Shown: positions 965-32,147, counted from the first letter of the stretch. The stretch: DNA of 64,000 bases from an uncultured Rhodobacteraceae bacterium (GCA_947503175.1 CANNCO010000006.1:62323-126322); one strand, 5' to 3'. Notes: generated by a model not told the origin, from the sequence alone. Made by a program: numbers and translations.

Positions 965-978
965 TTGAGATTAATCAA
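965..978. promoter_or_regulatory. FNR/FixK-type box TTGAG-ATTA-ATCAA upstream of the YfcC gene
   Basis: One mismatch to TTGAT-N4-ATCAA; centre about 70 bp upstream of the ATG at 901. Confidence 0.7.
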
Positions 979-1254
979 CTCATGTCACGCAATGCGGAAG
1001 AATCGGCCTGCCGTAGAGTGAGCATTAGAGGCGCGACTTACGACAATTGGCGAAGGCGGCTCGGCAGGATCGGACGTTCGCAGTTTTCGGAGCGGCGGGC
1101 CCTCAAACAGGTGGCGCCCATTGCCCGGCAGGCGAAACATAGTTTCGATGAGACGGGATCATGACGTCTTCTGGCCAGAAAGGTTCGCTCGTATCACCGC
1201 CCGGTTTTCGACCGGCGAAGCATGCCGCGTCGCCAGAATCACGGGGTCCCGACC

Positions 1255-2355
1255 CTAGATCCAGAAATTCTCCCGCACCGTTCCCTGCACCGGGCCATCG
1301 GGCGTTTCGATCCGCAACGCGGTGCCCGGGTCCCAATGGGTCATCCGGACCATGCCGATGGCCACCGAGCAGTCGAAATCGGGAGACCACGCGGCAGATG
1401 TGACTTGGCCGATCTTTTTGTCCTTCGCCATGATTGGCCAGGCCCGGTCACAGGTCGGCACACGATCCGATATCTCAATGGCGCGAATCTGGCGGATTGG
1501 TCCGTCTTTTGCGACCCGAAGCAACGCGTCCCGGCCAATGCAGCCAATGGCCGTCTGCGTATTGCAGAACTTTCCCAAACCGCATTCGTGGGGGGTGTTG
1601 TCGCGGGTCATGTCATTGCCGTAGCTGAGCAACCCGCCCTCGATCCGTTCTGCGCCGCTCGGACAGCCAGCGCGGACGTTCAGATCCTCACCGGCCTTGA
1701 AAAGCGCGTTCCAGATCGGCATGCCGAGATCGGTTCCTTCGACGTAGATCTCAAAGCCGCCCTGCTTGGAATAGCCCGAGCGCGCGATCACAACATCACG
1801 ACCTTCAAAGTTGAAAACGCCGAAGCGGAAGAAGCGCAGGTTACGGATGTCGTCGCCAAAGACGCGTGCGGCCAGATCGTCGGACTTCGGTCCCTGGATC
1901 GCCAGTGGGCTGATATCTGGCTCGTCCACCAGCACTTCGAAGCGATAGGCGTTCGCGATCCCCTTTACCCAAAGCAAAAGATCGGAGTCGGCAATGGAAA
2001 TCCAATAGCGATCCTCGCTGATCTTGACCGCGACCGGATCATTCAGCATGCCGCCCGTTTCATCGACAATGGGAACATAGAGGCACTGGCCCGGCAGCAT
2101 TCCCCGCAGGTCGCGCGGTGTCAGCGTTTGCATCAGGCGCGTGGCGTCCGGGCCCCGCAACTCCACTTGGCGTTCGCAGGCCACGTCCCAGACCTGAACA
2201 TGCTTTTTTAGGTGGTGATAGTCGGCCTCCGGACTTTCAAAGTATGTCGGCAGAAGCATGTGGTTGTAGACGGTGTAAGCACCTACGCCCGCGGCCTCTA
2301 CACCTTCGGAGAACGGCGTGCGGCGCAAACGCCGTGAAGGAGAAATCAGGGCCAT
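1255..2355 (-). CDS. dmdA: DMSP demethylase (GcvT family aminomethyltransferase)
   Basis: N-terminus SRRLRRTPFSEGVEAAGV.YTVYNHMLLPT, HVQVWDVACERQV, GGMLNDPVAVK and ARSGYSKQGGFEIY match the roseobacter DmdA sequence as I recall it; the neighbouring dmdB/dmdD support the call. Confidence 0.88.
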   Translation of the reverse strand: MALISPSRRLRRTPFSEGVEAAGVGAYTVYNHMLLPTYFESPEADYHHLKKHVQVWDVACERQVELRGPDATRLMQTLTPRDLRGMLPGQCLYVPIVDETGGMLNDPVAVKISEDRYWISIADSDLLLWVKGIANAYRFEVLVDEPDISPLAIQGPKSDDLAARVFGDDIRNLRFFRFGVFNFEGRDVVIARSGYSKQGGFEIYVEGTDLGMPIWNALFKAGEDLNVRAGCPSGAERIEGGLLSYGNDMTRDNTPHECGLGKFCNTQTAIGCIGRDALLRVAKDGPIRQIRAIEISDRVPTCDRAWPIMAKDKKIGQVTSAAWSPDFDCSVAIGMVRMTHWDPGTALRIETPDGPVQGTVRENFWI

Positions 2356-2360
2356 CGGAG

Positions 2361-3980
2361 CTATCCTTTTGCACGGGCCTGTTGGCGCAACTCGAATTTC
2401 TTGATCTTGCCGGTGGCTGTTTTGGGCAAAGTTCCAAAGACAACCGCCTTGGGTGTCTTGAACCCGGCCAGATGGCCCCGACAGAATGTGATGATGTCTT
2501 CATCGCTGGGTGCCGAGCCATCGCGCAGCTCGACATAAGCGCAAGGGACTTCACCCCATTTGGCGTCGGGTTTGGCAACGACCGCAGCGGCTTGAACGTC
2601 CGGATGGCGATAGAGCACCGCCTCGACCTCGACCGAAGAGATGTTCTCGCCGCCCGAGATGATCACATCCTTCAGACGGTCTCGGATCTGCATATAACCG
2701 TTCTCGTGCACCACAGCCGCGTCGCCGGACCAGAACCAGCCGTCCGCAAACGCCTTGGCGCTCGCCTCTTCGTCCTTGTAGTAGCCCTTCATAACCGTGT
2801 TCGAGCGTATCGCGACCTCACCCTGGGTCGCGCCGTCCATCGGCACGGGATCGCCTGTTTCGCGGTCAAGAACGGCGACATCCTGAACCATCGGAAAAGC
2901 GACCCCCTGATGCGCCTGCAACTCGGCCTGCTCAGATGGCGAAAGAGTATCCCAGTCTTCTTGCCAAAGGCATTGAGAGATATGGCCAAAGGTCTCGGTA
3001 AGCCCATAGACCTGCATGACATCAAGGCCCATCTGTCCTGTCTTTTCAAGAATTGCGGGCGGTGGCGGGGCGCCTGCCGTCATTACGCGGATACGCGGGG
3101 AATAGGGTTCGCTCGGCCCGGACGGGCTTTCCGCAAGCATCTGCAGAACGATCGGGGCGGCACCGAAATGGGTGATGTTCTCTGCCGCGATTTCTTCAAA
3201 GATCCGCTGCGGGACCGGGTCCCGGGTGAACACCATCTTCCCGCCCACCAACGGCAGCATCCACGGGTGACACCAGCCGTTGCAATGAAACATCGGCACG
3301 ATGGACAGGTACGAGACGTAATGCGGCACCTGCCACGCGTTCACCGTGCCCATGGCCATGAGCGCAGCGCCACGATGGTGATAGACGACCCCCTTTGGCC
3401 GACCCGAGGTGCCCGATGTATAATTCAGCGCAAGCGCCTGCCATTCGTCATCGGGCAGCCCGGTGTCACTGAACCCAGGACCATCCAGAAGATCGTCATA
3501 GCCGGACTCGCCCACCGTCCCGGCATCGGGGCCTTGGGCATCCCGGATCGTGATCAGCGGGCGGGTATCGCCGAGGATATCGAACGCGGCATGGACAAGG
3601 CTTGCAAACGTAGTGTCCGCGATCACCAGCTTGGTATCGGCATGGCCAAAGATGTAGGCGATGGTTTCGGCCTCAAGCCGGAAGTTTATCGTGTTCAGAA
3701 CCGCCCCGATCATCGGTACGGCAAAGTGCAGCTCGAACAACTCCGGTATATTCGGACAGATGACGGAAACCGTGTCACCTTTTCCGATGCCGCGGGCTTG
3801 TAACGCGCCCGCGACCGCACGCACCCGCTCTGCGAATGTCTGCCAATCATAGCGAAGGTCGCCATAGACCACGGCGGGGCGCGATCTGTGGACGACGGCG
3901 GCACGGTTCAGATGGGAAACCGGGGAAAGCGGCACGTAGTTTGCCGCATTTGCCGCACTGGCCTCGAAATGGGTTTGCAT
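2361..3980 (-). CDS. dmdB: AMP-dependent acyl-CoA synthetase, probable 3-methylmercaptopropionate-CoA ligase (DmdB-like)
   Basis: YTSGTSGRPKG AMP-binding motif, NYVPLSP N-terminus, RLKDVIISGGENISS; lies 5 bp upstream of dmdA. Substrate is inferred from context. Confidence 0.75.
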   Translation of the reverse strand: MQTHFEASAANAANYVPLSPVSHLNRAAVVHRSRPAVVYGDLRYDWQTFAERVRAVAGALQARGIGKGDTVSVICPNIPELFELHFAVPMIGAVLNTINFRLEAETIAYIFGHADTKLVIADTTFASLVHAAFDILGDTRPLITIRDAQGPDAGTVGESGYDDLLDGPGFSDTGLPDDEWQALALNYTSGTSGRPKGVVYHHRGAALMAMGTVNAWQVPHYVSYLSIVPMFHCNGWCHPWMLPLVGGKMVFTRDPVPQRIFEEIAAENITHFGAAPIVLQMLAESPSGPSEPYSPRIRVMTAGAPPPPAILEKTGQMGLDVMQVYGLTETFGHISQCLWQEDWDTLSPSEQAELQAHQGVAFPMVQDVAVLDRETGDPVPMDGATQGEVAIRSNTVMKGYYKDEEASAKAFADGWFWSGDAAVVHENGYMQIRDRLKDVIISGGENISSVEVEAVLYRHPDVQAAAVVAKPDAKWGEVPCAYVELRDGSAPSDEDIITFCRGHLAGFKTPKAVVFGTLPKTATGKIKKFELRQQARAKG

Positions 3981-4006
3981 GGCGTGCCCTCCTCCGCGAA
4001 AGACGC

Positions 4007-4642
4007 CTACTTGGGTCCATGCCAGTCGATCTGACAGATTTCGGCCGAACGGCCCTCGAAATCCCAGACCCGCCCGAAGGCGCGCAAACGACCCTGATTC
4101 GCCGTGGCAACGGTAATATCGGCGCCCATCCAGTATTGACTGTTGGTGATGACCAGGTCTTTTTCGGGATCTTTGCCTGCGACCGGCACAACCTCGCCCT
4201 TGATCCTCTTGCCAACGGTAATGCGACGCGCCTTGCCCTCGTTCTCATAGGTGATCGGCTGACGCTCATGGCCCAGAAGCTCGGAGACAAGAATGCTGAA
4301 CAGTCCCGTCGTGCCCCGCGCCTTCCCCGACATGATCGTGACGATCGCGTCATAGGCTTCGTCACTGGAACGATCGTCGATGAACAGGGCGACCTTCCAG
4401 TTGCCGCGCGCCATCCGTTCGGGGATCTCGATCATCAGACCGATATTGAGACCCGAAAGGTCCACATCCCCGTATTGGCCCTTGTCGATCCGGATGCCGC
4501 CCCAGGTCTGACAATGCCCTTCGGTGGGCGGGTGCTGGCCCAGAGACACAACGCAAGGGCAAAACACCGTGCAGTTGCAGTTGAGGATTAGTTCCCCCTT
4601 CATCGTCCAGGGAACGGTACCGATCTCGCCATCCAGTGCCAT
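4007..4642 (-). CDS. DUF1326 family Cys-rich protein
   Basis: W.MKGELILNCNCTVFCPC...C motif and GNW.VALFIDDR; start moved to the ATG at 4642 with a GGGAG RBS. Confidence 0.8.
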   Translation of the reverse strand: MALDGEIGTVPWTMKGELILNCNCTVFCPCVVSLGQHPPTEGHCQTWGGIRIDKGQYGDVDLSGLNIGLMIEIPERMARGNWKVALFIDDRSSDEAYDAIVTIMSGKARGTTGLFSILVSELLGHERQPITYENEGKARRITVGKRIKGEVVPVAGKDPEKDLVITNSQYWMGADITVATANQGRLRAFGRVWDFEGRSAEICQIDWHGPK

Positions 4643-4656
4643 GCCGTCTACTCCCG

Positions 4657-5424
4657 CTAAAGTCCTGTGGTTGCCATCCATCCGGCCCCGCCAAGCAGGG
4701 CGTATCCCAGAGGCCGGCTGAGCCAGCGCCCGATCTCGGGCAGTTTCTCAAGTGTCATTATCAGTGTTGCGAGCCCCATGAAGGCGAGGCTCATCACCCC
4801 CCCGACAAAGGCTAAAAGCATCAGCGCCCAGCAGCAGCCAAGGCAGGTCGCACCAAGGCGCAGACCCATGCGCGAGGCGCCTTCGTCCCAATGCTGCATG
4901 TAGAATGTCACCGGCGCGCGGCACTTGCTGAGACATGCCTCTTTCAGCGTCGAGAACTGATATCCCCCCGCGATTGCCAGAAGAAGCATCGAAAGCCAGA
5001 CCGAGCGGCTGTCGCCAAAACCGCTGACCAGATCAAACTGAAATAGCGCCATTTGCAGGCCCGCAGCCAGTAACGAAAATCCTGCCCAGACCGCGATGAA
5101 CCCTGTCGCGAGGTGCGGGAACTCTGTTTTAGCACCTGTCTGGCCGATATCGTCATAGGCGGCAAAGGCGGGCAGCGCTGTGGGAAGCATCATTGCCGTG
5201 CACATCAGAAGCCACATCAGCGCAACGCGGCCGTAGCCCGCCAGATCGGGGGTGACGGTGCAAAGCGCGACCCAGAACTCGGCGCCGAACAGGCGCGAGG
5301 CATTGCGCAACTCCGCTGGGATCGCCATTGCATAAAGGACGACCCACGACGCAAGAATTGCGCCAAACAGCATAAGCCAATGCGCCCCAAGCATGGATCG
5401 GATCCTGTCTGCGAACACCGGCAT
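4657..5424 (-). CDS. DUF2182 family predicted metal-binding integral membrane protein
   Basis: WLLMCTAMMLP, YQFSTLKEACLSKCRAP and CLGCCWALM motifs, several TM segments. The ORF-track start at 5706 overlaps the regulator, so the real start is about 5424 (alternative 5394). Confidence 0.8.
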   Translation of the reverse strand: MPVFADRIRSMLGAHWLMLFGAILASWVVLYAMAIPAELRNASRLFGAEFWVALCTVTPDLAGYGRVALMWLLMCTAMMLPTALPAFAAYDDIGQTGAKTEFPHLATGFIAVWAGFSLLAAGLQMALFQFDLVSGFGDSRSVWLSMLLLAIAGGYQFSTLKEACLSKCRAPVTFYMQHWDEGASRMGLRLGATCLGCCWALMLLAFVGGVMSLAFMGLATLIMTLEKLPEIGRWLSRPLGYALLGGAGWMATTGL

Positions 5425-5445
5425 CTCCCGAGTCAGCGGTTGCAA

Positions 5446-5475
5446 TTTAAATGTCAGACTTTTAAATGTCTGACA
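5446..5475. promoter_or_regulatory. Tandem FadR-type operator sites TTTAAATGTC(A/T)GAC x2 in the divergent promoter
   Basis: 14-bp direct repeats at 5446-5459 and 5461-5474. They also form the inverted repeat TGTCAGAC-N8-GTCTGACA (5452-5475), ending 1 bp before the regulator ATG. Confidence 0.7.
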
Positions 5476-5476
5476 A

Positions 5477-6280
5477 ATGAAAATTGATCCCGAAAACACC
5501 GCGGGCCTCTCGGCCCAGATCGCCGAGGCGATCCGCGGCTCGATTGTATCCGGCGCGCTTATCGTTGACGAACGCCTTCCGTCAGAGGCGGAGCTCGCCG
5601 AACAATTCGAGGTTTCCCGGCCGACGATCCGCGAAGCCCTCAAACGCCTGGCCGCGCAGTCACTGATCCGCACACAACGCGGCGCCTTCGGCGGGGCCTT
5701 CGTCAACCGCCTGTCCTACGAAGATGCCCGCACGCAATTCGTTACGACATCGACACTGCTTCTCAGCATGAACCAAGTGAGTTTCGATACCGCCTGCGAA
5801 GCGCGTTTTGCTCTTGAACGGGCCTGTGCGCCCATGGCTGCCGCGCGCCGGGAACCGGATCAATTGGCGATCATGCGCGCAGAGATTGCACGCCAGAGCG
5901 AACCAAACCTGAGTGACGAGGCATTCTGCGCCTCCGACGTGACCTTTCACCGGGCGCTTGTCGACGGCGCGCAGAATCCGGTGCTGTCCTATCAGCTTTC
6001 CGGTTCCATTGAGGCAATGCAGCCCCTTATGAACATGATTACATTCTCTGCACGGTCCCGCGCCGAGATCGTCGCGATCCACGCCAACATCGCAGGTGCA
6101 TTGGAAAGCCGCGATGGCGAGGCAACGATGTCGCATCTGGAACGGCTTGAGAACTATACCAAAAAACTCGCGCATACCGTCATGGCGGCGAGGCAAAAGG
6201 CGCGTGACGGTAAGGGTTCTGCTACGCTGGCCACGGGCGACCGCACATTGGTTTCTCAGTCCGAGGCCAAGGATACCTGA
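5477..6280 (+). CDS. GntR/FadR family transcriptional regulator (DmdR-like by context)
   Basis: N-terminal w[25 protein letters not shown] plus FCD domain (DVTFHRAL); divergent from the dmd operon. Confidence 0.9.
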
Positions 6281-11579: not shown

Positions 11580-11595
11580 TGTAACGAATTGTATC
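11580..11595 (-). promoter_or_regulatory. K-box-like site GATACA-ATTC-GTTACA upstream of fixK
   Basis: One mismatch to the GTTACA-N4-GTTACA K-box bound by FxkR in rhizobia; lies between fixK and the OmpR-type regulator. Confidence 0.7.
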
Positions 11596-20897: not shown

Positions 20898-20911
20898 TTG
20901 AGATATATCAA
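20898..20911. promoter_or_regulatory. FNR/FixK-type box TTGAG-ATAT-ATCAA between nqrA and the cytochrome c gene
   Basis: One mismatch to consensus; centre about 75 bp from the nqrA start and about 70 bp from the cytochrome start. Confidence 0.72.
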
Positions 20912-20974
20912 ATCAAAAGATTTTGTATCGTGACCATATGCTCTGGAACGCTCTCGTCGGCAGGAGGAATCTCG

Positions 20975-23293: not shown

Positions 23294-24490
23294 TCAAGTC
23301 GCCCGGGTTCGGTCACGTGTCTCGGTTTGTGGCGGAACCTGCGCCGCAACGTTCAGATATGCCGTGAAGTCCGACAGCGTGACAACGCCCGCCAGCCGCC
23401 CATCATCAATAACAAGGAACTTGCGCTGACCCGTTCTGGTAATCCGCTCAAGCAGATCCGGCGCGGAGTCTCGGGGGCCGACAACATCTCTGGCAGAAAG
23501 ACCCTCGAACACATCGTTCACGGTTGTTGTCGCCCAGTTTTCCCGATCGATCCTGGTGAGCAGATGAAGATCGATATACCCGATCGGCCGCGCGCCGGCC
23601 ATCACAGGCGCAAAACTGACCGAATGATTCAGAAAAACCTGATCCACGAGATCCTGGAGCGTCTGGTCGGGCTCTGCGGTCCAGGGCGCAGTGGTCATGA
23701 GATTGGCCACGAAAAGCCCGTGAAGCGCTTTACGTGTCAAAAGCTGCCGGTAGGTTGCGGTGGATGCCGCCAGTAGAAAAAGCCCGATCATGATCGGCCA
23801 GATCCCGGCCGCCACAGCACCGTTGAACAGCGTGAATATCCCAAGGGCAATAAGGCCATAGGCTGTGACCGTAGAAAGCCGCGCGGCGCGGCGCGTCGCC
23901 TCAAGCTGATCGCCGATCTGGCCCCAGAGAATCGCGCGATAGACCCGGCCTCCATCCAGCGGAAAGGCCGGCAAGAGGTTGAACACGGCAAGGATAAGGT
24001 TCGCCACCGCAAGGTAAAGCAGGACCGCCTGTACCGCTTCCATACCGGGCAGGCCCATGGTGAGCATGGCGAGAACCCAAAACGCGAGGGACAAGGCAAA
24101 GCTGGCCAGCGGTCCGGCCACGGCTACACGGAATTCGGTCGCGGCATCCGGCGGCTCGTCTTCCATCTCGGCGACACCGCCGAACAGAAAGAGAGTAATG
24201 CTTTTGATGCGAATACCGTGGCGGCGGGCGACAAGTGAATGGGCAAGCTCGTGCAGGATCAGCGATCCGAACAACGCAATCGCTGCGGCAACCGACATGG
24301 TGAAGAGCGTTTCCGGAGACGCGCCGGGGAGGACTGACGGAAAATACCCTTGCGACAGACTCCAGACCACAAGCGCGGCAATCAGAACCCAGCTTATATC
24401 GATCTTTACGTCAAAGCCGACAAGGCGCGCGATCCTGACAGACCGCCCCCAAAGCGTATGGCCGTCTTCAGACACAGGGCACCAGCCCAA
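23294..24490 (-). CDS. Site-2 protease (M50) with C-terminal CBS pair
   Basis: HELAH zinc motif, NLLPAFPLDGGR, CBS repeats; start 24490 or 24475. Confidence 0.9.
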   Translation of the reverse strand: MGWCPVSEDGHTLWGRSVRIARLVGFDVKIDISWVLIAALVVWSLSQGYFPSVLPGASPETLFTMSVAAAIALFGSLILHELAHSLVARRHGIRIKSITLFLFGGVAEMEDEPPDAATEFRVAVAGPLASFALSLAFWVLAMLTMGLPGMEAVQAVLLYLAVANLILAVFNLLPAFPLDGGRVYRAILWGQIGDQLEATRRAARLSTVTAYGLIALGIFTLFNGAVAAGIWPIMIGLFLLAASTATYRQLLTRKALHGLFVANLMTTAPWTAEPDQTLQDLVDQVFLNHSVSFAPVMAGARPIGYIDLHLLTRIDRENWATTTVNDVFEGLSARDVVGPRDSAPDLLERITRTGQRKFLVIDDGRLAGVVTLSDFTAYLNVAAQVPPQTETRDRTRAT

Positions 24491-24599
24491 ACCTCAGGAA
24501 GGTATTCTGTTTCTTGTGAACCCGGTCGAGCATCTTCTCCCTCCCGAACGCTCCTTTGTCGAAAAGAGCATGAATTCCGGCACAACCCGTTGAGGAAGA

Positions 24600-27209
24600 T
24601 CAAATCGGTGCAGAGTTCCGGCGCATCACGATCCATTTGAACAACTCCGGAACGACGATCAGCGGTAGGGCCAAAACAGCAATCATGATCCAGTTATCGA
24701 CGCCCAGCGGTACGGTGTGAAGCACCGTTTGCAGCGGCGGCCAATACACCGCCGCAACCTGTGCCGAAAGGGTCAGGGCCAATGCCCCCAAGAGGACCGG
24801 GTTCGAAAACCATCCCAGAGTCGAGCAACTGTGGCGAAGCGAACGGAACGCAAAGACACTCATCTTTTCGAAGACAACCATCGCGCTGAAGGCGGCCGTC
24901 CGCGCGATGTCGGTTCCGAACGGCAAGGTCTGATAGAACACCCAAAGGCTGGCACCGCCCGTGTAAAGTGCGAAGATCACGATCACGGCCATGCCGTTCC
25001 ATCCGATAATCGGCGTATCAATCTCGCGTGGCGGCGTTTTCATCTGGTCCGGTTCGGACTTTTCAAGACCCAGCGCCACTGCCGTGATCCCGTCGGTCAC
25101 GAGGTTCATCCAGAGGATCTGGGTCGCCAGAAAGACAAGCGGGCCCCCGATCATTATGTTCGCGAGGATCGCGAGCACTTCGCCCGCATTCGAGGTCAGC
25201 AGATAGCGCACGAACTTGCGGATATTGTTGAACTGCCTGCGCCCTTCGCTGATCGCGGCGACGATCGTGGCAAAATTGTCGTCAAGCAGGACGAGATCGC
25301 TGGAATCGCGGGCGACTTCGGTCCCGCGCCCGCCCATGGCGATGCCGATATCGGCCTGTTTCAACGCGGGCGCATCATTCACCCCGTCGCCCGTCATCGC
25401 GACGATCTGCCTGCGGGCCTGCAAAGCCCGAACGAGCCGGATCTTGTGAGCGGGCTTTGTCCGCGCGAACAGGACCGGCTGATCCAGGACGTCGGCAAGT
25501 GCCCCGTCGTCCATCTCATCGAGATCGCGCCCGGTCAGGGTGCGCCGGGTTTGAAGTCCGATCTGGTTTGCAATCGCCTGCGCGGTAATGGGGTTGTCGC
25601 CGGTGATCATAACAACCCGGATGCCAGCGCTCCCCGCAGCCGCGACCGCGGCGGGGACCGAAGCACGCGGCGGGTCAATCAGGCCGACAAGGGCGGTGAG
25701 CACAAGATCGCGTTCAGCGATATCGCCAGCATTCGACGCCGGTCTGTCGGCAAGAGCGATGACGCGCAGCCCATCCGACGCCATGTCCGAAAGCGCGGCT
25801 TCGATCTGCGCTCTGATTTCGGCGCTAAGGGGCACCGGGCCATCCGGTGTCAACAGGGCTGTGCAGATCGCCAGAACCTGTTCGGGCGCCCCCTTGCAAT
25901 GCAACGTGAACGGCGCACGAGACAGCACGCTCATGCGTTTCCGCTCGCTGGTGAACGCGGTCTCGTGAAGGATCGCATCCGGGCCGGGCAGAGGTACCCA
26001 TCCCTTATAGGCCAGCGTGATAAGCGCCCCTTCCGTCGGATCGCCCATCATATGCCACCCATCGGTATCATGGCTGAGGAGCGCATGGGTGCATGTCACG
26101 GCAGTCGTCAATGCCCGGGCAAGAACCGGGTCGTCAGCGGCCCTGACGCGATCCCCGCTGAGTGAGATGTGACCTGCGGGATCATAGCCGGTTCCGGTCA
26201 CGGGCGCCAAGCCATGGGCCATCCAGATCTGCGTCGCGGTCATCCGGTTTTCAGTCAGCGTCCCGGTCTTGTCTGTACAGATCACGGACGCCGCCCCCAA
26301 AGTCTCGACCGCCTGCAGCCTGCGCGCCACGGCTTTCTGCCGCGCCATCGCCATCGCGCCAAGCGCAAGGGTGATGGTGACGACGGCGGGCAGGCCCTCC
26401 GGCACGATCGCAACCGCCAGAGACAGGCCGGTCAGAAAAATGTCAGACAGCGCACGGCCCGATAAGAGACCGATGATGACAACCAGCACGGCAATCCCCA
26501 GCGCTGCCGCCCCCAACTGGGTTGCCAGTCGCGAAAGCTGAGTTTGCAGAGCGGTGGGGGGCTCTTCGGCACGCCTCGCCAGATCGGCGATGCGGCCAAA
26601 CTCGGTCTTCAGGCCGATCTCCGAAACCTCACCCTCGGCCCGCCCCTGAACCACCGACGTCCCGGCATAAAGGCGCTCGGATTCTGTTTCGCCGGATTTC
26701 TCGACCGGGACGCTCTCGCCCGTCAGAACGCTTTCATCGATCATGAGCTGTTGCTGACGCAGCGGCTTCAGATCAGCGGGTATCACGTCTCCCGCCGCGA
26801 CAAGCACATGGTCCCCCGGAACCAGATCGCGTGCCGGTATCGTCTGACGTCGCCCGTCACGGATCACCGTGGCCATCGGCGCCATCATCGAGCGCAAGGC
26901 CTCCAACTGGTTCTCGGCGCGCCACTCCTGCACGAAACCGAAGGCGGCATTGAGCACGATCACCGCCGTTATGGCGGCCGCATCCACCACCTCGCCCAAT
27001 GCATAGGCAATAACTGCGGCGACGATCAGTATGACGACAAGCAGACTCGCGAACTGCCGCAGAAACAGCCGCACCGGATGCGCACGGGCGGCCCGGGGCA
27101 ATTCGTTCCATCCTGTCGCCGCGCGCCTTCGCAGAACCTCGTCGGTACCGAGGCCGGGCGCACCTTCAGGCGGTTCTAGCTGCACGGGCGAAATCCTTAT
27201 CTGCTTCAC
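24600..27209 (-). CDS. Type II P-type cation-transporting ATPase
   Basis: [40 protein letters not shown]. Confidence 0.95.
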
Positions 27210-27244: not shown

Positions 27245-27258
27245 TTGATGCGCGTCAA
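27245..27258. promoter_or_regulatory. FNR/FixK-type box TTGAT-GCGC-GTCAA
   Basis: Between the divergent ATPase and phasin genes; centre about 68 bp from the phasin ATG. Confidence 0.75.
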
Positions 27259-27319
27259 GCGTCTGCGTGGAAACAACAGCTAGAATCCCCATACCCGGAA
27301 GCCAATCAGGAGAACGGCA

Positions 27320-27658
27320 ATGGTTCGCAAATCCCCGACACAGGAAGAGAAGACCGAAACCCCGGATCCGACTGCTGCATTTGCACAAATGGCCCCGGTC
27401 GCATGGATGAGCCGCGCCTGGATCGAGAACATGTCGGATCTCGGCTCCGAGATCACGACATTCGTTGCGCAAAGGATCAGCGAAGACGTACGGACGCAGC
27501 ACGCCATTCTGCACTGCAAGACGCTGCCGGAGTTGCAGCATATCCAGGCTGAATTCATGCAGCGCGCCCTCGACGATTACAGCGCCGAGACAGGCAAGCT
27601 CGTGAAAATGAGTAACGAGATCATCGAACGCATCCGATCGCAGCCCGAGGCTGACTGA
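27320..27658 (+). CDS. Phasin family (PHA granule-associated) protein
   Basis: E...FV..RI.ED......L..CK...EL..IQ.EF...A..DY..E..K pattern of alphaproteobacterial phasins; GGAG RBS. Confidence 0.75.
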   Translation: MVRKSPTQEEKTETPDPTAAFAQMAPVAWMSRAWIENMSDLGSEITTFVAQRISEDVRTQHAILHCKTLPELQHIQAEFMQRALDDYSAETGKLVKMSNEIIERIRSQPEAD

Positions 27659-27685
27659 AGCGGATCAGAAATTGGAGACAGACTT

Positions 27686-28033
27686 ATGGAAGACGTGGAA
27701 CGACTGCTGAAGGGGACGGTTGACGAGCTTGACCGGTTGCTCAATGCCAAGAACGTGCTCGGCGATCCGATCGAAAAGGACGGTGCGACGGTGATCCCGA
27801 TTGTCAGCTACGGCTTCGGTTTCGGCGCCGGCGGCGGTGAAAGCGAAAAGAACGGCAACGGTGGCGGCACCGGAGGCGGCGGCGGTATCAGGCCACTTGG
27901 CGCGATCATCATCGATGCCGATGGCGCAAGGGTCGAGGCGGTGCAGGGTCCGATGACCACGCTGGTCGAGACGGTCGGCGAAACGGCCAAACGGGCTATC
28001 GACAGCCGGGCCGCACGCGCAGCCAAAACCTGA
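27686..28033 (+). CDS. GerW/YtfJ family protein
   Basis: VLGDPIEKDGATVIPIVSYGFGFGAGGG...GGTGGGGGIRPLGAIII motif. Confidence 0.85.
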   Translation: MEDVERLLKGTVDELDRLLNAKNVLGDPIEKDGATVIPIVSYGFGFGAGGGESEKNGNGGGTGGGGGIRPLGAIIIDADGARVEAVQGPMTTLVETVGETAKRAIDSRAARAAKT

Positions 28034-28043
28034 CCCCCGGATA

Positions 28044-28598
28044 ATGGCCATCGCCCTGACCATCGTGCTCTGGGCAACGCTCGCACTTGCCACCATTTGC
28101 CTTGCGGCACTCCTTTTGCCGGTGCGGATCGAAATGCACATCCGCACCGAGCCGCGACTGCGTTACGGGATGATCTTGCGACCGTTTTTCGGACGCGGCC
28201 CGGGGTTTTCCGTGACCGGCGCAGCGTGGCGCAAACGGAAACCCCCGCGAAAGCAGAAATCGCGCACAAGTCGCGTGTCGGCGAAACGCGGAAGGGCGAT
28301 GATACGGGCTGCGCCAGACCTCCTGCGCGGGCTTTTGGACTCGGTCCGGCTGGAAACCCTTCGCCTGGATGCCACCTTCGGCACGGATGACCCGGCCGAT
28401 ACGGGCCATCTGTTCGGATTTGTGTCGCCGGTTCTCTACGGACTTCCGCCATCCGACAAGTATCACGTTCGGCTTCGGCCCGATTTCAACGGGCCCGTGT
28501 TTGATGGCAGCTTCGAAGCCCATCTCCGCGTGCTACCGTTCTGGATTGCCGGAACGCTCGTGCGATTTGGGTGGCGCGTCTTTTGGCCGGGCCGATGA
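28044..28598 (+). CDS. DUF2953 (YtfI-like) protein
   Basis: N-terminal TM helix, basic linker, L.LDATFGTDDPADTGHLFG..., P.F....F.G. Confidence 0.75.
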   Translation: MAIALTIVLWATLALATICLAALLLPVRIEMHIRTEPRLRYGMILRPFFGRGPGFSVTGAAWRKRKPPRKQKSRTSRVSAKRGRAMIRAAPDLLRGLLDSVRLETLRLDATFGTDDPADTGHLFGFVSPVLYGLPPSDKYHVRLRPDFNGPVFDGSFEAHLRVLPFWIAGTLVRFGWRVFWPGR

Positions 28599-28837
28599 CC
28601 TATCACGTCGAAGGCCCGATCATGACGGGCGCATCACAGGTTCTTGTTGTGAGCAAGACCGAGGTTGCGGGAGCGCGGATCCGGGGTATCGACCTTTTCA
28701 ATGCGTCCAAAAAACCGATCTGCGTCGTGGTCCGGTCAGGCTCGAAAGTGCAAAGGTTCGACATACCCGGCACTGGCGTGGACCCGGCAAAAATCGATGC
28801 GCTCATACCCGATCTGAGAGATGCTGACCCGCCGTAA
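28595..28837 (+). CDS. Small hypothetical protein (80 aa)
   Basis: ATGA overlap with the DUF2953 stop; KKPICVVVRS is weakly reminiscent of the YtfJ P-x-x-V-V strand. Confidence 0.6.
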   Translation: MTYHVEGPIMTGASQVLVVSKTEVAGARIRGIDLFNASKKPICVVVRSGSKVQRFDIPGTGVDPAKIDALIPDLRDADPP

Positions 28838-28859: not shown

Positions 28860-28873
28860 TTGACCTGTGTCAT
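28860..28873. promoter_or_regulatory. Weaker FNR/FixK-type box TTGAC-CTGT-GTCAT
   Basis: Centre about 66 bp upstream of the adaptor gene ATG at 28933; imperfect right half. Confidence 0.5.
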
Positions 28874-28932: not shown

Positions 28933-30174
28933 ATGAACGACACCAACAGGGATGTGGCCGAAGTTCTGGGTGTGGGGCGCAAGAACAGGCGCGGTCTGCG
29001 CTGGGCCGGTTACGCGATAGCTGCGGCGGTTATCGGTGGTGGTGTCGTCTACTGGATCCAAAGCGCGGATGCGGTACGCGCGGTCCAATATGCCACGGCA
29101 CCGGCCGAGGTTTCCAGCTTTGTCGTGACCGTAACGGCAACGGGCTCGGTCGAGCCAACAAACCTCGTCGAAATCTCCAGCGAGCTTTCCGGGACCATCA
29201 AGAACGTCAATGTGGATTACAACGATCAGGTCGAGGTCGGCACGATTCTGGCCGAGCTGGATACGACCAAACTCAATGCCCAACTCGACGTCAGCCGCGC
29301 CGCGCTGGATGCCGCCATCGCCCGGGTGGCGATGGCCCGGGCAACACTGGACGAAGCCAAGGAACGCTATGAGGCCTCTCTGGACCTGCAACAAAGGGGC
29401 GTGGACTCTCGCCAGGCCCTGATCGCGCAAAAAGCGGCATATGACCGTGCCCGGGCATCGCTGCAATCCGCAGAGGCAGATCAAAAACTGGCCGAAGCCA
29501 ATCTGGACCTTCAGAAGACCGAACTGGATAAGGCCTGCATCTGCGCACCGATTCGCGGCGTCGTGCTGGACCGTGCGGCTGACACCGGCCAGATTGTCGC
29601 CTCCGCTCTCTCGGCACCGATCCTGTTCACGCTGGCGGAAGACCTGACCCAGATGGAGTTGCGGGTGGATGTCGACGAGGCGGATATCGGACAAGTCGCC
29701 GTTGGGGACAAGGCGACTTTCACGGTCGATGCCTATGACGACCAGCTTTTTCCCGCCGAGATTTCAGAGATCCGCTTCGCGCCCGAGATCATCGAGGGTG
29801 TCGTAACCTACAAGGCCGTTCTCACGATCGACAATTCCGAGATGTTGCTGCGCCCGGGCATGACGGCGACAGCCGACATCACCGTGGATGAAAAAACGGA
29901 TGTCCTCACAGTTCCGAATGCGGCCCTGCGCTATGCGCCGCCCGTTGAGCAGACCGGCGACGAGGACGAACGGAGCGGTCTGTTGGGAATGCTGATCCCG
30001 TCGGACAGCGACATGAGACAACGGGGCGATGACCGCGCGATATGGGTGTTGCGCGACGATCAGGCCGTCCAGACCGAGGTTCGCCCCGGCGCCACGAACG
30101 GGCAGATTACCGAAATCCTTGAAGGCGATCTTTCCGAGGGCGATCTGGTGATCGTGGACCGGATCGATGGCTGA
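28933..30174 (+). CDS. MacA-like periplasmic adaptor (membrane fusion protein)
   Basis: TM anchor, VTATGSVEP..VEISSELSG, alpha-hairpin, VDVDEADIG; GAGGA RBS. Confidence 0.9.
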   Translation: MNDTNRDVAEVLGVGRKNRRGLRWAGYAIAAAVIGGGVVYWIQSADAVRAVQYATAPAEVSSFVVTVTATGSVEPTNLVEISSELSGTIKNVNVDYNDQVEVGTILAELDTTKLNAQLDVSRAALDAAIARVAMARATLDEAKERYEASLDLQQRGVDSRQALIAQKAAYDRARASLQSAEADQKLAEANLDLQKTELDKACICAPIRGVVLDRAADTGQIVASALSAPILFTLAEDLTQMELRVDVDEADIGQVAVGDKATFTVDAYDDQLFPAEISEIRFAPEIIEGVVTYKAVLTIDNSEMLLRPGMTATADITVDEKTDVLTVPNAALRYAPPVEQTGDEDERSGLLGMLIPSDSDMRQRGDDRAIWVLRDDQAVQTEVRPGATNGQITEILEGDLSEGDLVIVDRIDG

Positions 30175-30883
30175 GAGCACGGGGAAAAACGCGCTGATCG
30201 ATCTGCGCGGGATCAGCCGGGTCTATGGTGAGGGCGAAACAGAGGTTCGCGCGCTTGACGGGATCGATCTGGCCATCGACGAGGGCGAGTTCGTCGCCAT
30301 CATGGGGCCCAGCGGCTCCGGCAAATCGACGGCGATGAACGTTATCGGTTGCCTCGACAGCCCGACAAGCGGAACCTACCTGTTCGATGGTGTCGAGGTG
30401 GCGAATCTGACCCGGGATCAGCGCGCGCTGCTCAGGCGTCACTATCTGGGCTTTATTTTTCAGGGCTACAATCTGATCGCCCGCTCAAGCGCGCTCCACA
30501 ACGTCGAACTGCCCTTGATCTACAAGGGCATGCCGCGTGCCGAGCGGATCAGGGCCGCTACGGCCGCGCTTGAGAAAGTTGGGCTGGCGCACCGGGATCA
30601 TCACGATCCGTCCGAGCTGTCGGGCGGGCAGCAGCAACGCGTCGCCATCGCCCGTGCGCTTGCGGGTAATCCGCGTGTCGTGTTGGCCGACGAACCGACC
30701 GGCAACCTTGATACGACACGATCGATCGAGATCATGGAGGTGTTGCGCGACCTGAACCGCAACGAGGGGCTGACCATCGTAATGGTCACCCATGAGGACG
30801 ACATGGCGCAGTTCGCGGATCGCCTAGTCTGGATGGTTGACGGCCGGATCGAAAGCGACAGCCCGACACAGAGGGCCGCCTGA
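30167..30883 (+). CDS. ABC transporter ATP-binding protein (MacB/LolD type)
   Basis: GPSGSGKST, LSGGQQQRVAIARAL, LADEPTGNLD. Confidence 0.95.
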   Translation: MAESTGKNALIDLRGISRVYGEGETEVRALDGIDLAIDEGEFVAIMGPSGSGKSTAMNVIGCLDSPTSGTYLFDGVEVANLTRDQRALLRRHYLGFIFQGYNLIARSSALHNVELPLIYKGMPRAERIRAATAALEKVGLAHRDHHDPSELSGGQQQRVAIARALAGNPRVVLADEPTGNLDTTRSIEIMEVLRDLNRNEGLTIVMVTHEDDMAQFADRLVWMVDGRIESDSPTQRAA

Positions 30884-30884
30884 G

Positions 30885-32096
30885 ATGATCTGGGAAGCCG
30901 TCAAACTTGCGGTGCAGGCAATCTTCCGAAACGCATTGCGTTCGTTTCTGACCGTTCTCGGGATCGTGATCGGCGTCTCGGCCGTCATCGCGATGGTTAC
31001 CGTCGGACAGGGATCGACAGAGCAGGTCACAGCGGATGTCGAGAAGTTGGGAACGAACGTCCTTATGGTCATGCCGGGACAGGACGCAATGCAGGGCGGT
31101 CCGGCCACCACCGCGATCCAGCAGTTCAACATACGCGACAACGAGGCCCTGCAAGAGCAACTGGCCATAGTCGACATCTCCGCGCCGCTCTCCTTCTCCC
31201 GCGCGCGGGCTGTTTTCGGAAATGAAAACCGCCGTACCGATATCATCGGCACCGACAACCGGTACTTCGAGGCAGCACGATGGGAAGTCGCCATCGGCCG
31301 GGTTTTCGAACCTTCGGAAATCCAGTCTGGCAAGCCTGTATGCGTGTTGGGCGAAACCGTGCGGAAAAGCCTGTTCGGATATGCCGACCCGGTGGGCGAA
31401 ACGATCCGGATCAAGACGCTGTCCTGCACGGTGATCGGGCTGTTGCAGTCGAAGGGCGCCTCGACCTTCGGCAGCGATCAAGACGACTTCGTGATCATGC
31501 CGATCAAGGCGTTCCAGCGGCGCATCGCGGGAAACACCGACGTCTCCACCCTCTATCTCTCGGTACATGAAGGCGTCTCAACGGACCGCGCAAAGGAAGA
31601 AATCGAGCGTTTCATGCGCGAAATCCGTCATATAGGCGCGAACGAAGACGATGATTTCACTGTCATGGACATGAAACAAATCTCGACCATGCTGTCCGGG
31701 ATAACCGACATCCTCACCGGGCTGTTGTCGGCGGTCGCGGCTGTCAGTCTTCTTGTCGGCGGGATTGGGATTATGAACATCATGCTCGTGTCGGTCACCG
31801 AAAGGACCCGCGAAATCGGCATCCGACTGGCCATCGGCGCACAGGCGCGACAGGTGCTGACACAGTTCCTGGTCGAGGCAATCGTGCTGTCCCTGATCGG
31901 CGGGTTGATTGGGGTCGTGCTCGGGCTTGTCCTGGGCTTTGTCGGCGCTCAGATGCTTGCCGTGCCTTTCGCGCCCGAGCCTGGCGTTGTCCTACTTGCC
32001 TTTGCGTTCTCGTTCGCAGTGGGGGTGATCTTTGGCTACTTTCCGGCACGGCGCGCCGCAAACCTTGATCCGATCGAGGCATTAAGGCGCGAATAG
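30885..32096 (+). CDS. MacB/FtsX-type ABC permease
   Basis: RSFLTVLGIVIGV, LLVGGIGIMNIMLVSVTERTREIGIR, PARRAANLDPIEALR. Confidence 0.93.
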   Translation: MIWEAVKLAVQAIFRNALRSFLTVLGIVIGVSAVIAMVTVGQGSTEQVTADVEKLGTNVLMVMPGQDAMQGGPATTAIQQFNIRDNEALQEQLAIVDISAPLSFSRARAVFGNENRRTDIIGTDNRYFEAARWEVAIGRVFEPSEIQSGKPVCVLGETVRKSLFGYADPVGETIRIKTLSCTVIGLLQSKGASTFGSDQDDFVIMPIKAFQRRIAGNTDVSTLYLSVHEGVSTDRAKEEIERFMREIRHIGANEDDDFTVMDMKQISTMLSGITDILTGLLSAVAAVSLLVGGIGIMNIMLVSVTERTREIGIRLAIGAQARQVLTQFLVEAIVLSLIGGLIGVVLGLVLGFVGAQMLAVPFAPEPGVVLLAFAFSFAVGVIFGYFPARRAANLDPIEALRRE

Positions 32097-32133
32097 CACA
32101 ACACTTCCGCAAAAGCCGTCAGGCGCCACACGT

Positions 32134-32147
32134 TTGACCACGATCAA
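32134..32147. promoter_or_regulatory. FNR/FixK-type box TTGAC-CACG-ATCAA upstream of ppsA
   Basis: Centre about 64 bp upstream of the ppsA ATG. Confidence 0.78.

Follow-up and report, generated by a model that had tools for sequence, protein, structure and literature searches.

Genes and sites at the locus

We analysed a 64-kb stretch of DNA from an uncultured Rhodobacteraceae bacterium (the window), in which the genes for a FixK-type protein and two further regulators occur together with short palindromic sites (Box 1 to Box 6). Gene calling based on GC3 failed to discriminate ORFs at 60% G+C and was uninformative; therefore, genes were assigned by family searches. The features are as follows.

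2-901, minus strand: DcuC/YfcC-family transporter gene (yfcC; Pfam DcuC, 2.1e-66; NCBIfam YfcC, 1.8e-51, below cut-off); start ATG 901 with GGAGGA upstream; 3' part beyond the window edge
965-978, unstranded: Box 1, TTGAGATTAATCAA; centre 70.5 bp upstream of yfcC ATG 901
10824-11504, minus strand: fixK-type CRP/FNR regulator, 226 aa (Pfam); start is M14 of the longest ORF
11580-11595, minus strand: K-box (putative FxkR site), GATACAATTCGTTACA; centre 83.5 bp upstream of fixK ATG
11665-12402, plus strand: OmpR-type response regulator, FxkR-like (Pfam); divergent from fixK; alternative start ATG 11638
12399-13949, minus strand: hybrid FixL-like kinase with haem-type PAS, HisKA, HATPase and REC domains (Pfam)
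14069-14467, minus strand: CBS-pair protein (Pfam CBS, 1e-29); ATG overlaps the nqrM stop codon (ATGA)
14464-20829, minus strand: nqrA-B-C-D-E-F, apbE, nqrM operon (Na+-NQR; Pfam)
20898-20911, unstranded: Box 2, TTGAGATATATCAA; 75.5 bp from nqrA ATG 20829 and 70.5 bp from cytochrome c ATG 20975
20975-22078, plus strand: multihaem cytochrome c (Pfam)
22091-23272, plus strand: Na+/H+ exchanger family gene (nhaP; Pfam)
23294-24490, minus strand: M50 metalloprotease with CBS pair (Pfam); start uncertain, TTG 24490 or GTG 24475
24590-24603, unstranded: Box 3, TTGAGGAAGATCAA; 106.5 bp upstream of M50 TTG 24490 (outlier); overlaps the ATPase stop
24600-27185, minus strand: P2-type (Ca2+-ATPase-like) cation P-type ATPase (Pfam)
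27245-27258, unstranded: Box 4, TTGATGCGCGTCAA; 66.5 bp from ATPase GTG 27185 and 68.5 bp from phasin ATG 27320
27320-27658, plus strand: phasin (Pfam)
27686-28033, plus strand: GerW/YtfJ-like gene (Pfam; NCBIfam spore_ytfJ, 1.4e-12, below cut-off)
28044-28598, plus strand: DUF2953 gene (Pfam)
28597-28837, plus strand: small ORF (read from the sequence)
28860-28873, unstranded: Box 5, TTGACCTGTGTCAT (one mismatch); 66.5 bp upstream of hlyD ATG 28933
28933-32096, plus strand: MacAB-like efflux genes, namely HlyD-family adaptor, ABC ATPase and MacB/FtsX permease (Pfam)
32134-32147, unstranded: Box 6, TTGACCACGATCAA; 64.5 bp upstream of ppsA ATG 32205
32205-34598, plus strand: ppsA, phosphoenolpyruvate synthase (Pfam PPDK_N, 2.8e-117; PEP-utilizers; PEP-utilizers_C)

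The target gene identities given in a first-pass annotation of this DNA agree with the Pfam and NCBIfam matches. The nqrC, D, E and F genes score above their NCBIfam cut-offs while nqrA and nqrB score below, and nqrM was read by eye; the ATPase, whose GTG 27185 is preceded by an AAGGA ribosome-binding site, scores 671 and 621 bits against the PMR1/SERCA-type families, below their cut-offs. ATG 24533, which has a strong ribosome-binding site, was tried as the start of the M50 gene and rejected, being out of frame and opening a 21-codon upstream ORF. It should be noted that no box precedes fixK, the kinase gene or the Na/Pi cotransporter gene (8826-10658) in the window; hence the fixK gene has no visible autoregulatory box there, and the cotransporter gene was not counted as a member.

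Number and placement of the boxes

The exact motif TTGA-N6-TCAA occurs five times in the 64 kb, at 965, 20898, 24590, 27245 and 32134, compared with a mean of 0.78 per window in dinucleotide shuffles, none of which (0/100) reaches five. The first-pass annotation had also counted five FixK-type boxes, four of which are indeed exact, while the one at 28860 is imperfect (7/8 match) and the exact box at 24590, which straddles the ATPase stop codon, was absent from its list. On the curated gene map (1-34.6 kb), the 2,161 bp of intergenic DNA wholly contains four exact boxes, where 0.017 (mononucleotide shuffle) or 0.044 (first-order Markov) would be expected, and four were reached in 0/20,000 and 0/5,000 shuffles. 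Among the 256 possible 4+N6+4 palindromes, TTGA is the sole one with more than one intergenic match. The motif enrichment over shuffled DNA that had been suggested as a check is thus borne out.

One-mismatch sites as a class are not enriched in the window (22 found, 17.8 expected), and only the one at 28860 was accepted, on account of its location and of being kept in the closest relative, L001. At 32177, next to the ppsA start as predicted, lies a further one-mismatch site, CTGAGGATCGTCAA. The strict FNR consensus TTGAT-N4-ATCAA has no match in the window, and the looser FixK-form motif is the relevant one here. The five exact boxes and the 7/8 match conform to the anaerobox pattern TTGA(T/C)-N4-(A/G)TCAA, and they combine promoter location, above-chance frequency and conservation at orthologous genes. 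On these grounds, the sites are predicted to be real CRP/FNR-family operators.

The near-constant spacing of about 64-75 bp claimed earlier is found again, since the distance from box centre to start codon is 64.5-75.5 bp at all the boxes listed there, and Boxes 2 and 4 (20898 and 27245) do serve divergent pairs. However, the ATPase and protease genes, previously taken as one target, should be separated, as the protease gene is preceded by a box itself and may be independent of the ATPase promoter.

Promoter geometry

At class II FNR and CRP promoters of E. coli, the dimer site about 41.5 bp upstream of the transcription start replaces the -35 element, and two divergent genes can share a single site between them. 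A comparable arrangement may exist here. Several target families share a conserved -10-like TAnnnT block at 28.5-33.5 nt downstream of the box centre, for example, TAGAAT at 27281-27286 on the phasin side of Box 4. The box-to-gene spacers contain no -35/-10 sigma-70 match, and the promoter and terminator scan was uninformative near the boxes.

Contigs from four sequencing runs (X1-X4), whose kind is not recorded, were taken as probable RNA because their depth is patchy from gene to gene and loose ends resemble poly(A); X8 (an RNA-Seq library) and X10 (guessed to be RNA) were left out, as they cover too little of the region. In X1-X4, contig ends, which are not mapped 5' ends, fall 46.5-59.5 nt from the box centres, that is, 5-18 nt inside the starts that a site at -41.5 would give, if these runs are RNA. 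At Box 2, the box region is a gap in the contigs of four runs, with ends at 20844/20845 on one side and at 20956-20970 on the other. An end of an X1 contig near 24542, deduced from end offsets, lies by Box 3, and ends at 27205 and at 27305/27317 lie on the two sides of Box 4. After Box 5, the first contig position is 28922 in three runs and 28925 in the remaining one; after Box 6, contigs start at 32190, 32191 and 32201, but this box is itself crossed by one X3 contig (32073-32486). Box 1 is crossed by an X1 contig (852-1008), therefore the yfcC promoter is not bracketed. In summary, the -10-like block and the probable-RNA contig ends just inside the predicted starts fit the class II activation proposed in the first-pass annotation, although, compared with the E. 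coli promoters, the starts are predictions that contig ends bracket only roughly.

The regulators

The local CRP/FNR protein was annotated as FixK-type from the start, and this assignment holds. The protein has the cNMP-like domain and a recognition helix of the E--SR form (ETVSR), and lacks the four FNR cysteines, with no N-terminal cluster (CX2CX5C). Its best solved-structure match is FixK2 (4I2O, 2.4e-30), compared with 1e-18 for FNR and 1.5e-7 for DNR; in bits, FixK2 scores 109 and DNR 34.5. Against NCBIfam, it scores 141 bits with FixK (cut-off 300) and 117 bits with FnrL, both below the cut-offs. Consequently, the protein is regarded as a member of the subfamily rather than an equivalog of Caulobacter FixK. 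Its homologues have 226-227 aa, and it shares only 36% identity with FixK9b.

The divergently encoded OmpR-type regulator is 47% identical over 237 aa to FxkR9 of R. leguminosarum 3841 (E 4e-74) and is classed as FxkR-like on this pairwise similarity. Of its plasmid-borne matches (>5000 OmpR-type), most of the best ones outside Rhodobacterales are rhizobial; in the one context checked, on an R. etli plasmid, the matching gene sits among nirK, nnrU and usp, not far from a Crp/Fnr gene. The neighbouring kinase is 41% identical over 504 aa to hFixL9 and has the hybrid FixL make-up of haem PAS, kinase core and C-terminal receiver. Over its PAS residues 16-136, it matches haem domains of FixL (2CMN, 1DP6 and 1D06; E 6e-20 to 3e-18), and its 'GHPEF' and 'GVGR' align with the proximal His and the FG-loop Arg of BjFixL. 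Haem binding is predicted accordingly from the domain match.

Between fixK and the FxkR-like gene lies the K-box GATACAATTCGTTACA (GATACA-N4-GTTACA), which has one mismatch to the consensus GTTACA-N4-GTTACA as quoted second-hand in two studies (PMC7888657; PMC4999443). For a spacer of 176 bp, the probability that a K-box with no more than one mismatch arises by chance is estimated at about 8e-4. Such a box occurs in 32/32 related loci with the response regulator/fixK pair, with the orientation kept and the distance mostly similar, the consensus being GATACA-AAAY-GATACA. Because of the regulator families and the conservation of the K-box, the three genes can be assigned, as judged from sequence, to a cascade of the hFixL-FxkR-FixK type that is conserved across the Roseobacter group and has a clustered regulon.

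Conservation in related loci and on plasmids

In 49 related Rhodobacterales loci (936 kb), 251 exact boxes were found, or 17 per 64 kb, and they occupy orthologous positions in up to 37/49 loci. Position 5 of these 251 boxes is T in 52%, G in 24%, C in 22% and A in 2%. At a nearly constant distance, a box precedes the ATPase gene in 37 loci (median 65.5 bp), the phasin gene in 32 (median 67.5 bp) and the M50 gene in 32 (median 56.5 bp, with 116-138 bp in the closer relatives L002, L003 and L039). The yfcC orthologues of these three relatives and of L009 have an exact box too. L001 keeps the ppsA, hlyD, ATPase/phasin and cytochrome c boxes; its hlyD orthologue is preceded at 63.5 bp by the identical imperfect half-site (reverse complement TTGACCTGCATCAT), and both L001 and a Tropicibacter plasmid carry TTGATCGTGGTCAA 62.5 bp before ppsA. 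The cytochrome c and Na+/H+ exchanger genes also adjoin in L001, with 70-75% identity.

Gene content differs from relative to relative. Only fixK-fxkR-(hfixL)-M50-ATPase-phasin forms a stable core among the relatives, whereas nqr, cytochrome c-nhaP, the macAB-like genes and ppsA are common to the closest relative(s) only. Neighbourhoods with fixK contain 7.1 boxes per 22 kb, compared with 2.0 in those without (p=1.4e-4). The association of fixK with a box-rich neighbourhood is found on two Roseobacteraceae plasmids as well; the fixK-fxkR pair occurs with boxed ppsA and CBS genes on a 49-kb plasmid, and the Sulfitobacter plasmid copy adjoins ccoNOQP. Since the layout is kept by dozens of marine Rhodobacterales, it probably represents a real regulon of a familiar kind.

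Proposed regulation and alternative explanations

Taken together, we consider it probable that an hFixL-FxkR-FixK cascade activates the clustered targets through class II anaeroboxes, with the local FixK as the most likely activator. When oxygen falls, the hFixL-like haem-PAS kinase would phosphorylate the FxkR-like regulator, which would act on the K-box and switch on fixK; the FixK-type protein would then activate the box promoters, where the boxes would be class II activator sites for a CRP/FNR-family dimer, centred near -41.5. Low oxygen as the signal, and activation as the outcome of binding, are what we infer. At least six promoter regions may drive eight transcription units, namely yfcC; nqrABCDEF-apbE-nqrM-CBS-hfixL; cytochrome c-nhaP; the M50-CBS protease gene; the P2-type ATPase gene; phasin-ytfJ-DUF2953; the macAB-like genes; and ppsA. 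The regulon would thus comprise genes of cation and sodium energetics, carbon reserves, efflux and proteolysis, clustered around their regulators. In the window, read-through from the nqr promoter into the CBS gene and hfixL could feed back onto the kinase. The contigs cross the CBS-nqrM-apbE junctions and also span the CBS-hfixL spacer; in 20 related loci, the kinase gene has a box of its own at a nearly constant distance, which is lacking in the window.

Could the boxes mainly serve FnrL, the global Fe-S oxygen sensor encoded outside the window, with the local FixK minor or redundant? The FNR, FixK and DNR motifs are virtually identical (PMC2908626), therefore FnrL encoded elsewhere could bind these boxes; 71 operons have been assigned to FnrN/FnrL in Rhodobacterales (PMC4999443), and anaeroboxes are common to FnrN and FixK in R. 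leguminosarum (PMC7888657). In D. shibae, universal stress protein genes are under FnrL, and a Na+/H+ antiporter is under a Dnr paralogue (PMC5398030). However, box density tracks a neighbouring fixK, boxed targets accompany fixK-fxkR even on the 49-kb plasmid, the K-box cascade is kept beside the targets in the 32 loci, and family searches found no FnrL gene in the 64-kb window. We therefore regard FnrL as the main binder as rather unlikely, although the two readings are compatible and dual control by FixK and FnrL is plausible.

Less probable still is the suggestion that the block at 8.5-34.6 kb is a discrete, self-contained hypoxia island that moves horizontally. It is true that the regulators and several targets adjoin, that the module occurs on plasmids in two Roseobacteraceae, and that its position and accessory genes vary between genomes. 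Nevertheless, G+C stays at 0.58-0.64 throughout the block without a step at 8.5 or 34.6 kb, and the borders have ordinary genes and no tRNA, integrase or transposase, the sole tRNA of the window being at 58349. Moreover, no relative has the whole block; in the presence/absence comparison proposed as a check, merely parts were common and the content varied, while the core is syntenic across about 30 species, a pattern that vertical inheritance, with genes gained and lost locally, would be expected to give. One boxed gene, yfcC, although it had been included, lies 7.5 kb outside the block. Accordingly, the cluster is no discrete mobile island. The idea that regulator and regulon travel together survives insofar as box density follows fixK, but not as a self-contained island of about 26 kb, given the flat composition.

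The hFixL-FxkR-FixK reading should also be compared with binding by another CRP/FNR paralogue of the NO-responsive Dnr/NnrR type, for which the signal would be nitrosative stress or something else, not oxygen. In related loci, the cluster includes a further CRP/FNR regulator, of 222 aa, whose gene is itself boxed, and Dnr-type proteins likewise lack the Cys cluster. With a local protein much closer to FixK2 than to DNR, a FixL-type haem-PAS in the adjoining sensor, and neither a second CRP/FNR gene nor denitrification genes found in the window by family searches, this alternative is very improbable. Finally, chance matches of a short AT-rich palindrome in AT-richer intergenic DNA might be suspected, as only 8 bases are fixed and one-mismatch matches occur at the chance rate, but this reading is refuted by four exact boxes in 2.2 kb of spacer against 0.02-0.04 expected, a number that no shuffle gave, and by box positions kept in dozens of species.

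Comparison with known systems

The arrangement most resembles the Rhizobium hFixL-FxkR-FixK cascade, with its hybrid haem-PAS kinase bearing a C-terminal receiver, OmpR-type regulator, K-box direct repeat in identical orientation upstream of fixK, FixK without Cys cluster, and TTGA-N6-TCAA anaeroboxes before the targets; the divergent fixK/fxkR layout is that of Rhizobium plasmid pRL9. The differences are that the host belongs to Rhodobacterales, with no link to nitrogen fixation, that the K-box consensus in the related loci has GATACA rather than GTTACA, and that, in place of fixNOQP/fixGHIS, the window has genes for Na+-NQR, cation transporters, phasin, efflux and protease, together with ppsA, as targets. 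In published surveys, only FnrN/FnrL-type regulators are given for Rhodobacterales, and the origin of the cascade is placed in Rhizobiaceae (PMC4999443).

The B. diazoefficiens FixLJ-FixK2 system shares the DNA motif and an identical ETVSR recognition helix. Its FixK2 regulon includes ppsA, Hsp20, universal stress, host-attachment and CBS proteins, an HlyD adaptor and phaC2 (PMC9104804). The earlier statement that FixK2 controls ppsA and PHB-related genes is sound, ppsA and phaC2 being validated direct targets (PMC9104804). In the window, ppsA, PHB-related, CBS, HlyD-family adaptor and cytochrome c genes are likewise among the targets, the relatives add Hsp20, universal stress and host-attachment proteins, and the targets are partly clustered in both genomes. 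However, an OmpR-type FxkR stands upstream here, in place of the NarL-type FixJ, and by alignment reading the window protein has Arg at the position of the oxidation-sensitive Cys183 of FixK2.

FnrL/Dnr of D. shibae and FnrL of Rhodobacter, from the same order, recognize the same palindrome, with universal stress genes and a Na+/H+ antiporter among the low-oxygen targets (PMC5398030; PMC2908626). FnrL senses oxygen directly by an Fe-S cluster, whereas in the window protein the cysteines for such a cluster are absent and control is assigned to a two-component system.

Implications

The locus probably represents a regulon of a known kind in a group for which it had no earlier description, and would extend the rhizobial oxygen-signalling cascade of hybrid FixL, FxkR, K-box and FixK to marine Rhodobacterales. 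A concrete target list kept across dozens of species bears on how oxygen-poor microzones (particles, sediments, algal or animal hosts, for instance) are tolerated by abundant marine heterotrophs. The targets suggest a response of ion homeostasis, sodium-motive respiration, gluconeogenic PEP synthesis, storage-polymer handling and stress proteins, not of a high-affinity oxidase alone.

A wider view, which we put forward tentatively and with some doubt, is that the Roseobacter group, mostly regarded as aerobes, may possess a conserved supra-operonic cluster for low-oxygen survival, run by a cascade that the surveys consulted describe for rhizobia only, to which a compact Na+-NQR, a multihaem cytochrome and sodium/cation transporters might have been recruited in this lineage. 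If so, nqr-apbE-nqrM-CBS-hfixL would be one transcript from a FixK box, so that positive feedback would link the sodium pump with the oxygen sensor in a unit that could switch the cell to sodium-based energy conservation under hypoxia.

For annotation, genes that would otherwise be called 'helix-turn-helix protein', 'response regulator' and 'PAS domain S-box protein' gain names, together with six predicted promoters.

Enrichment and position of the boxes

The 64-kb window has five exact copies of the FixK/FNR-type box TTGA-N6-TCAA (at 965, 20898, 24590, 27245 and 32134), against a chance mean of 0.78, and none of 100 dinucleotide-preserving shuffles reaches five. A pattern search of the window found no strict E. 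coli form, TTGAT-N4-ATCAA. By the gene map from family searches, the first 34.6 kb contain 2,161 bp of intergenic DNA, and four of the exact boxes fall entirely within it; shuffled spacers are expected to contain 0.017–0.044 boxes and never reach four. Of all 256 palindromes of the 4+N6+4 type, none but TTGA has more than one intergenic match in this region. The fifth exact box (24590) overlaps the ATPase stop codon. The first-pass annotation had listed the other four, which are indeed exact, and had omitted 24590; the further site that it listed, 28860 (TTGACCTGTGTCAT), has a single mismatch, and sites with one mismatch show no enrichment as a group in the window (22 observed vs. 17.8 expected).

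Genes of the boxed region (identities from family searches, start codons picked by ribosome-binding sites; distances run from box centre to start codon)
2–901, -, yfcC/DcuC-family transporter; 70.5 bp
8826–10658, -, Na/Pi cotransporter
10824–11504, -, CRP/FNR regulator (fixK-type)
11665–12402, +, OmpR-type regulator
12399–13949, -, PAS-kinase-receiver hybrid
14069–14467, -, CBS protein
14464–20829, -, nqrM, apbE, nqrFEDCBA; 75.5 bp (nqrA)
20975–22078, +, multihaem cytochrome c; 70.5 bp
22091–23272, +, Na+/H+ exchanger family
23294–24490, -, M50 protease with CBS pair; 106.5 bp (outlier)
24600–27185, -, P2-type ATPase; 66.5 bp
27320–28837, +, phasin, GerW/YtfJ-like, DUF2953, small ORF; 68.5 bp (phasin)
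28933–32096, +, HlyD adaptor, ABC ATPase, MacB permease; 66.5 bp (hlyD)
32205–34598, +, ppsA; 64.5 bp

The spacing of 64–75 bp proposed at first agrees with these distances, the M50 box, unlisted then, being the outlier; the two divergent gene pairs said to have a common box are likewise borne out by the gene map and the spacing.

Several features of these genes may be recorded here. The M50 leader contains a 21-codon upstream ORF (24468–24533, -), whose ATG at 24533 is preceded by GGGAGGGAGAAG; it overlaps the M50 start region in a different frame, and the M50 gene of most relatives starts about 56.5 bp from the box. Directly 3' of the phasin gene of this alphaproteobacterium are GerW/YtfJ-like and DUF2953 genes (27686–28598), families known from Bacillus sporulation genes; both are missing from the closest relative, L001, where hlyD directly follows phasin. 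NqrA (400 aa) and NqrB (256 aa; 18860–20829 together) are jointly about 200 aa below canonical length (447 and 406 model positions), and NqrB scores 86.7 bits against a cut-off of 414, with NqrC, D, E and F above theirs. Both ORFs are intact with a 4-bp overlap, and they may represent a compact Nqr variant or a divergent A/B pair. A one-mismatch box, CTGAGGATCGTCAA, at 32177–32190, 36.5 bp downstream of the ppsA box centre and beside the predicted start site, might act as a second site, possibly a repressing one, or have arisen by chance.

The regulatory module

In translation, the CRP/FNR protein shows ETVSR as its recognition helix and lacks a cysteine cluster at the N-terminus. Among solved structures its best match is B. 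japonicum FixK2 (2.4e-30), followed by FNR (about 1e-18) and DNR (1.5e-7), and its homologues, of 226–227 aa, occur mainly in Roseobacter-group genomes. The N-terminal PAS domain of the hybrid kinase matches the haem domains of FixL (E about 1e-19), and its GHPEF and GVGR motifs align with BjFixL at its proximal His and FG-loop Arg.

A cascade composed of such proteins has been characterised on plasmid pRL9 of R. leguminosarum 3841 (PMC7888657). The kinase is 41% identical to hFixL9 of pRL9 over 504 aa, the response regulator 47% to FxkR9 and the window FixK 36% to FixK9b, and the divergent arrangement of fixK and the regulator gene is common to both. FxkR acts at the K-box, GTTACA-N4-GTTACA (PMC7888657; PMC4999443). 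The spacer between fixK and the regulator gene in the window carries GATACAATTCGTTACA (reading towards fixK), centred 83.5 bp from the ATG, and G(A/T)TACA-N4-G(A/T)TACA is present in the same orientation in all 32 related loci having the pair, mostly 79–89 bp from the fixK start. Based on the regulator matches, the divergent layout and the K-box, the module is, as judged from its sequence, an hFixL-FxkR-FixK cascade.

Conservation in related loci

The ATPase protein was searched against one genome per species, which gave 49 loci, nearly all labelled Rhodobacterales or unclassified Alphaproteobacteria, with one distant match (41% identity) labelled Mesorhizobium; even the top match has only 74% identity. 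The order phasin <> ATPase - (extra genes) - M50 ... response regulator <> fixK is found in about 30 of the 49, and the loci contain 251 exact boxes in 936 kb, or 17 per 64 kb. When the genes downstream of boxes were grouped into families, the distance from box centre to start was near-fixed in each family, with medians of 65.5 bp for the ATPase (37 loci), 67.5 bp for phasin (32), 56.5 bp for M50 (32) and 65.5 bp for the hybrid kinase (20). In the relatives, boxes also precede genes of further families: a Na/Ca exchanger, VIT1, an ABC ATPase, Hsp20, two kinds of universal stress protein, a DksA/TraR-like protein, a host-attachment/baeRF12 protein, a second CRP/FNR regulator and two unknown proteins.

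L001 retains four window sites, namely the ppsA (62.5 bp from the start), hlyD, ATPase/phasin and cytochrome c boxes, and its hlyD box has the identical imperfect half-site (reverse complement TTGACCTGCATCAT) at 63.5 bp. A box also precedes the yfcC orthologues in four other loci (L002, L003, L039 and L009). Such conservation, the L001 hlyD site included, settles on comparative grounds that the window boxes can be taken as functional elements, the imperfect 28860 site among them. The L001 ppsA orthologue (3739–6126), from a metagenome-assembled genome, aligns as four pieces in different frames, probably reflecting assembly frameshifts rather than a pseudogene.

Promoter geometry and contig ends

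When orthologous promoters were aligned on the box, the box and the ribosome-binding site were joined by a further conserved element, a TAnnnT block 28.5–33.5 nt past the box centre; in the window phasin promoter this block is TAGAAT (27281–27286). This is the expected -10 position if the box is centred near -41. A promoter scan found no -35/-10 sigma-70 pair in these spacers. In the kinase promoters (22 stacked; e.g., L029, box at 6886), two additional blocks downstream of the box are strongly conserved, CTTGC.C about 14–20 nt and TTGGCAG about 35–41 nt after the box centre.

The region is partly present, as short contigs, in four public runs of one study (X1–X4), whose records do not state their kind. 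Gene-to-gene depth is patchy (0 to 46), about one quarter of the sampled words are present and several loose ends are poly(A)-like, which fits RNA from a eukaryote-host study. At 20898, contigs end at 20844/20845 and restart at 20956–20970, so that none of the four runs covers the box. At 27245, contigs end at 27205 on the ATPase side and others start at 27305/27317 on the phasin side; contigs start at 28922 (three runs) or 28925 (the fourth) after the hlyD box and at 32190, 32191 and 32201 after the ppsA box, and the M50 contig end lies near 24542, as derived from distance-to-contig-end values. The ends at these five boxes are 46.5–59.5 nt from the box centres, that is, 5–18 nt inside the starts predicted for a site at -41.5. 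Two contigs are exceptions, spanning the ppsA box (X3, 32073–32486) and the yfcC box (X1, 852–1008). Class II geometry of the boxes relative to the predicted start sites is thus probable.

Contigs also end at 11498/11499 on the fixK side and start at 11526/11552 on the response-regulator side. With these ends, the K-box (11580–11595) would fall within the 5' leader of the regulator gene, an arrangement described for fxkR9 in R. leguminosarum, with the K-box there proposed as a repressing site for fxkR and an activating one for fixK (PMC7888657).

Proposed mechanism and relation to known systems

In the most likely chain, low oxygen would free the haem-PAS kinase, letting it phosphorylate the FxkR-like regulator, which would act at the K-box to activate fixK, and FixK dimers in the class II position would then activate the boxed promoters. 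A positive loop may be closed in the window by transcription that continues from the nqr promoter into CBS-hfixL; contigs span the CBS-hfixL and apbE-nqrM-CBS spacers of this proposed long operon, and the nqrM stop codon overlaps the CBS ATG. In relatives, by contrast, the kinase gene has its own box. The motifs of FNR, FixK and DNR are indistinguishable (PMC2908626), and Rhizobium FnrN acts at the same boxes as FixK (PMC7888657). An FnrL encoded elsewhere could therefore take part in the control.

Neither the motif nor the class II logic nor the cascade is new, and much of the target list is known too. Validated FixK2 targets include ppsA, phaC2 and hspC2, and FixK2 boxes occur at genes for universal stress, host-attachment and CBS proteins and an HlyD adaptor (PMC9104804). 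What was not found in the literature searched is this cascade in the present host group, Rhodobacterales: FixK has been described as generally restricted to Rhizobiales (PMC2908626), a comparative study reported only FnrN-type regulators in Rhodobacterales and put the origin of hFixL-FxkR-FixKf in Rhizobiaceae (PMC4999443), and no further mention of FxkR together with Rhodobacter was found in that literature.

Regulon and the proposed genomic island

The first-pass annotation further suggested that regulator and regulon travel together as a self-contained island at 8.5–34.6 kb. Their co-occurrence holds, since full-length loci with fixK have on average 7.1 boxes and those without it 2.0 (p = 1.4e-4), and the fixK/regulator pair is on plasmids in two Roseobacteraceae. 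The 49-kb plasmid of Tropicibacter oceani (L051) carries ppsA-fixK <> regulator-CBS, where one box precedes ppsA by 62.5 bp and another precedes CBS by 57.5 bp; on the 336-kb plasmid of Sulfitobacter sp. DSM 110093 (L053) the module adjoins ccoNOQP-ccoGHIS and three universal stress protein genes. The former module is next to plasmid replication and partition genes, and IS110 and IS5 transposases come after the module region of the latter.

A discrete island is not supported: the G+C content of the block is flat, its borders have ordinary genes but neither a tRNA nor a mobility gene, relatives have parts only, and yfcC falls outside the block by 7.5 kb. A conserved core (fixK, fxkR, hfixL, M50, ATPase and phasin) with lineage-specific nqr, cytochrome c-nhaP, macAB-like and ppsA genes is a better description.

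The DNA separating the yfcC box from the regulator block includes a DUF1326-PpoB2 pair (4007–5706, -; PpoB2 being the copper-chaperone family formerly DUF2182) with a 25-bp overlap, bearing no relation to the boxes. At the other end of the window, in 58349–64000, a stretch of 50% G+C (about 60% elsewhere) starts directly after tRNA-Phe (58349–58423) and holds a Gabija defence pair (GajB, 59304–60710, -, 567 bits; GajA, 60697–62478, -, 704 bits), a PDC-S31 candidate (62882–63580) and a weak AbiGi-like ORF; it has the appearance of a defence island inserted at this tRNA gene.
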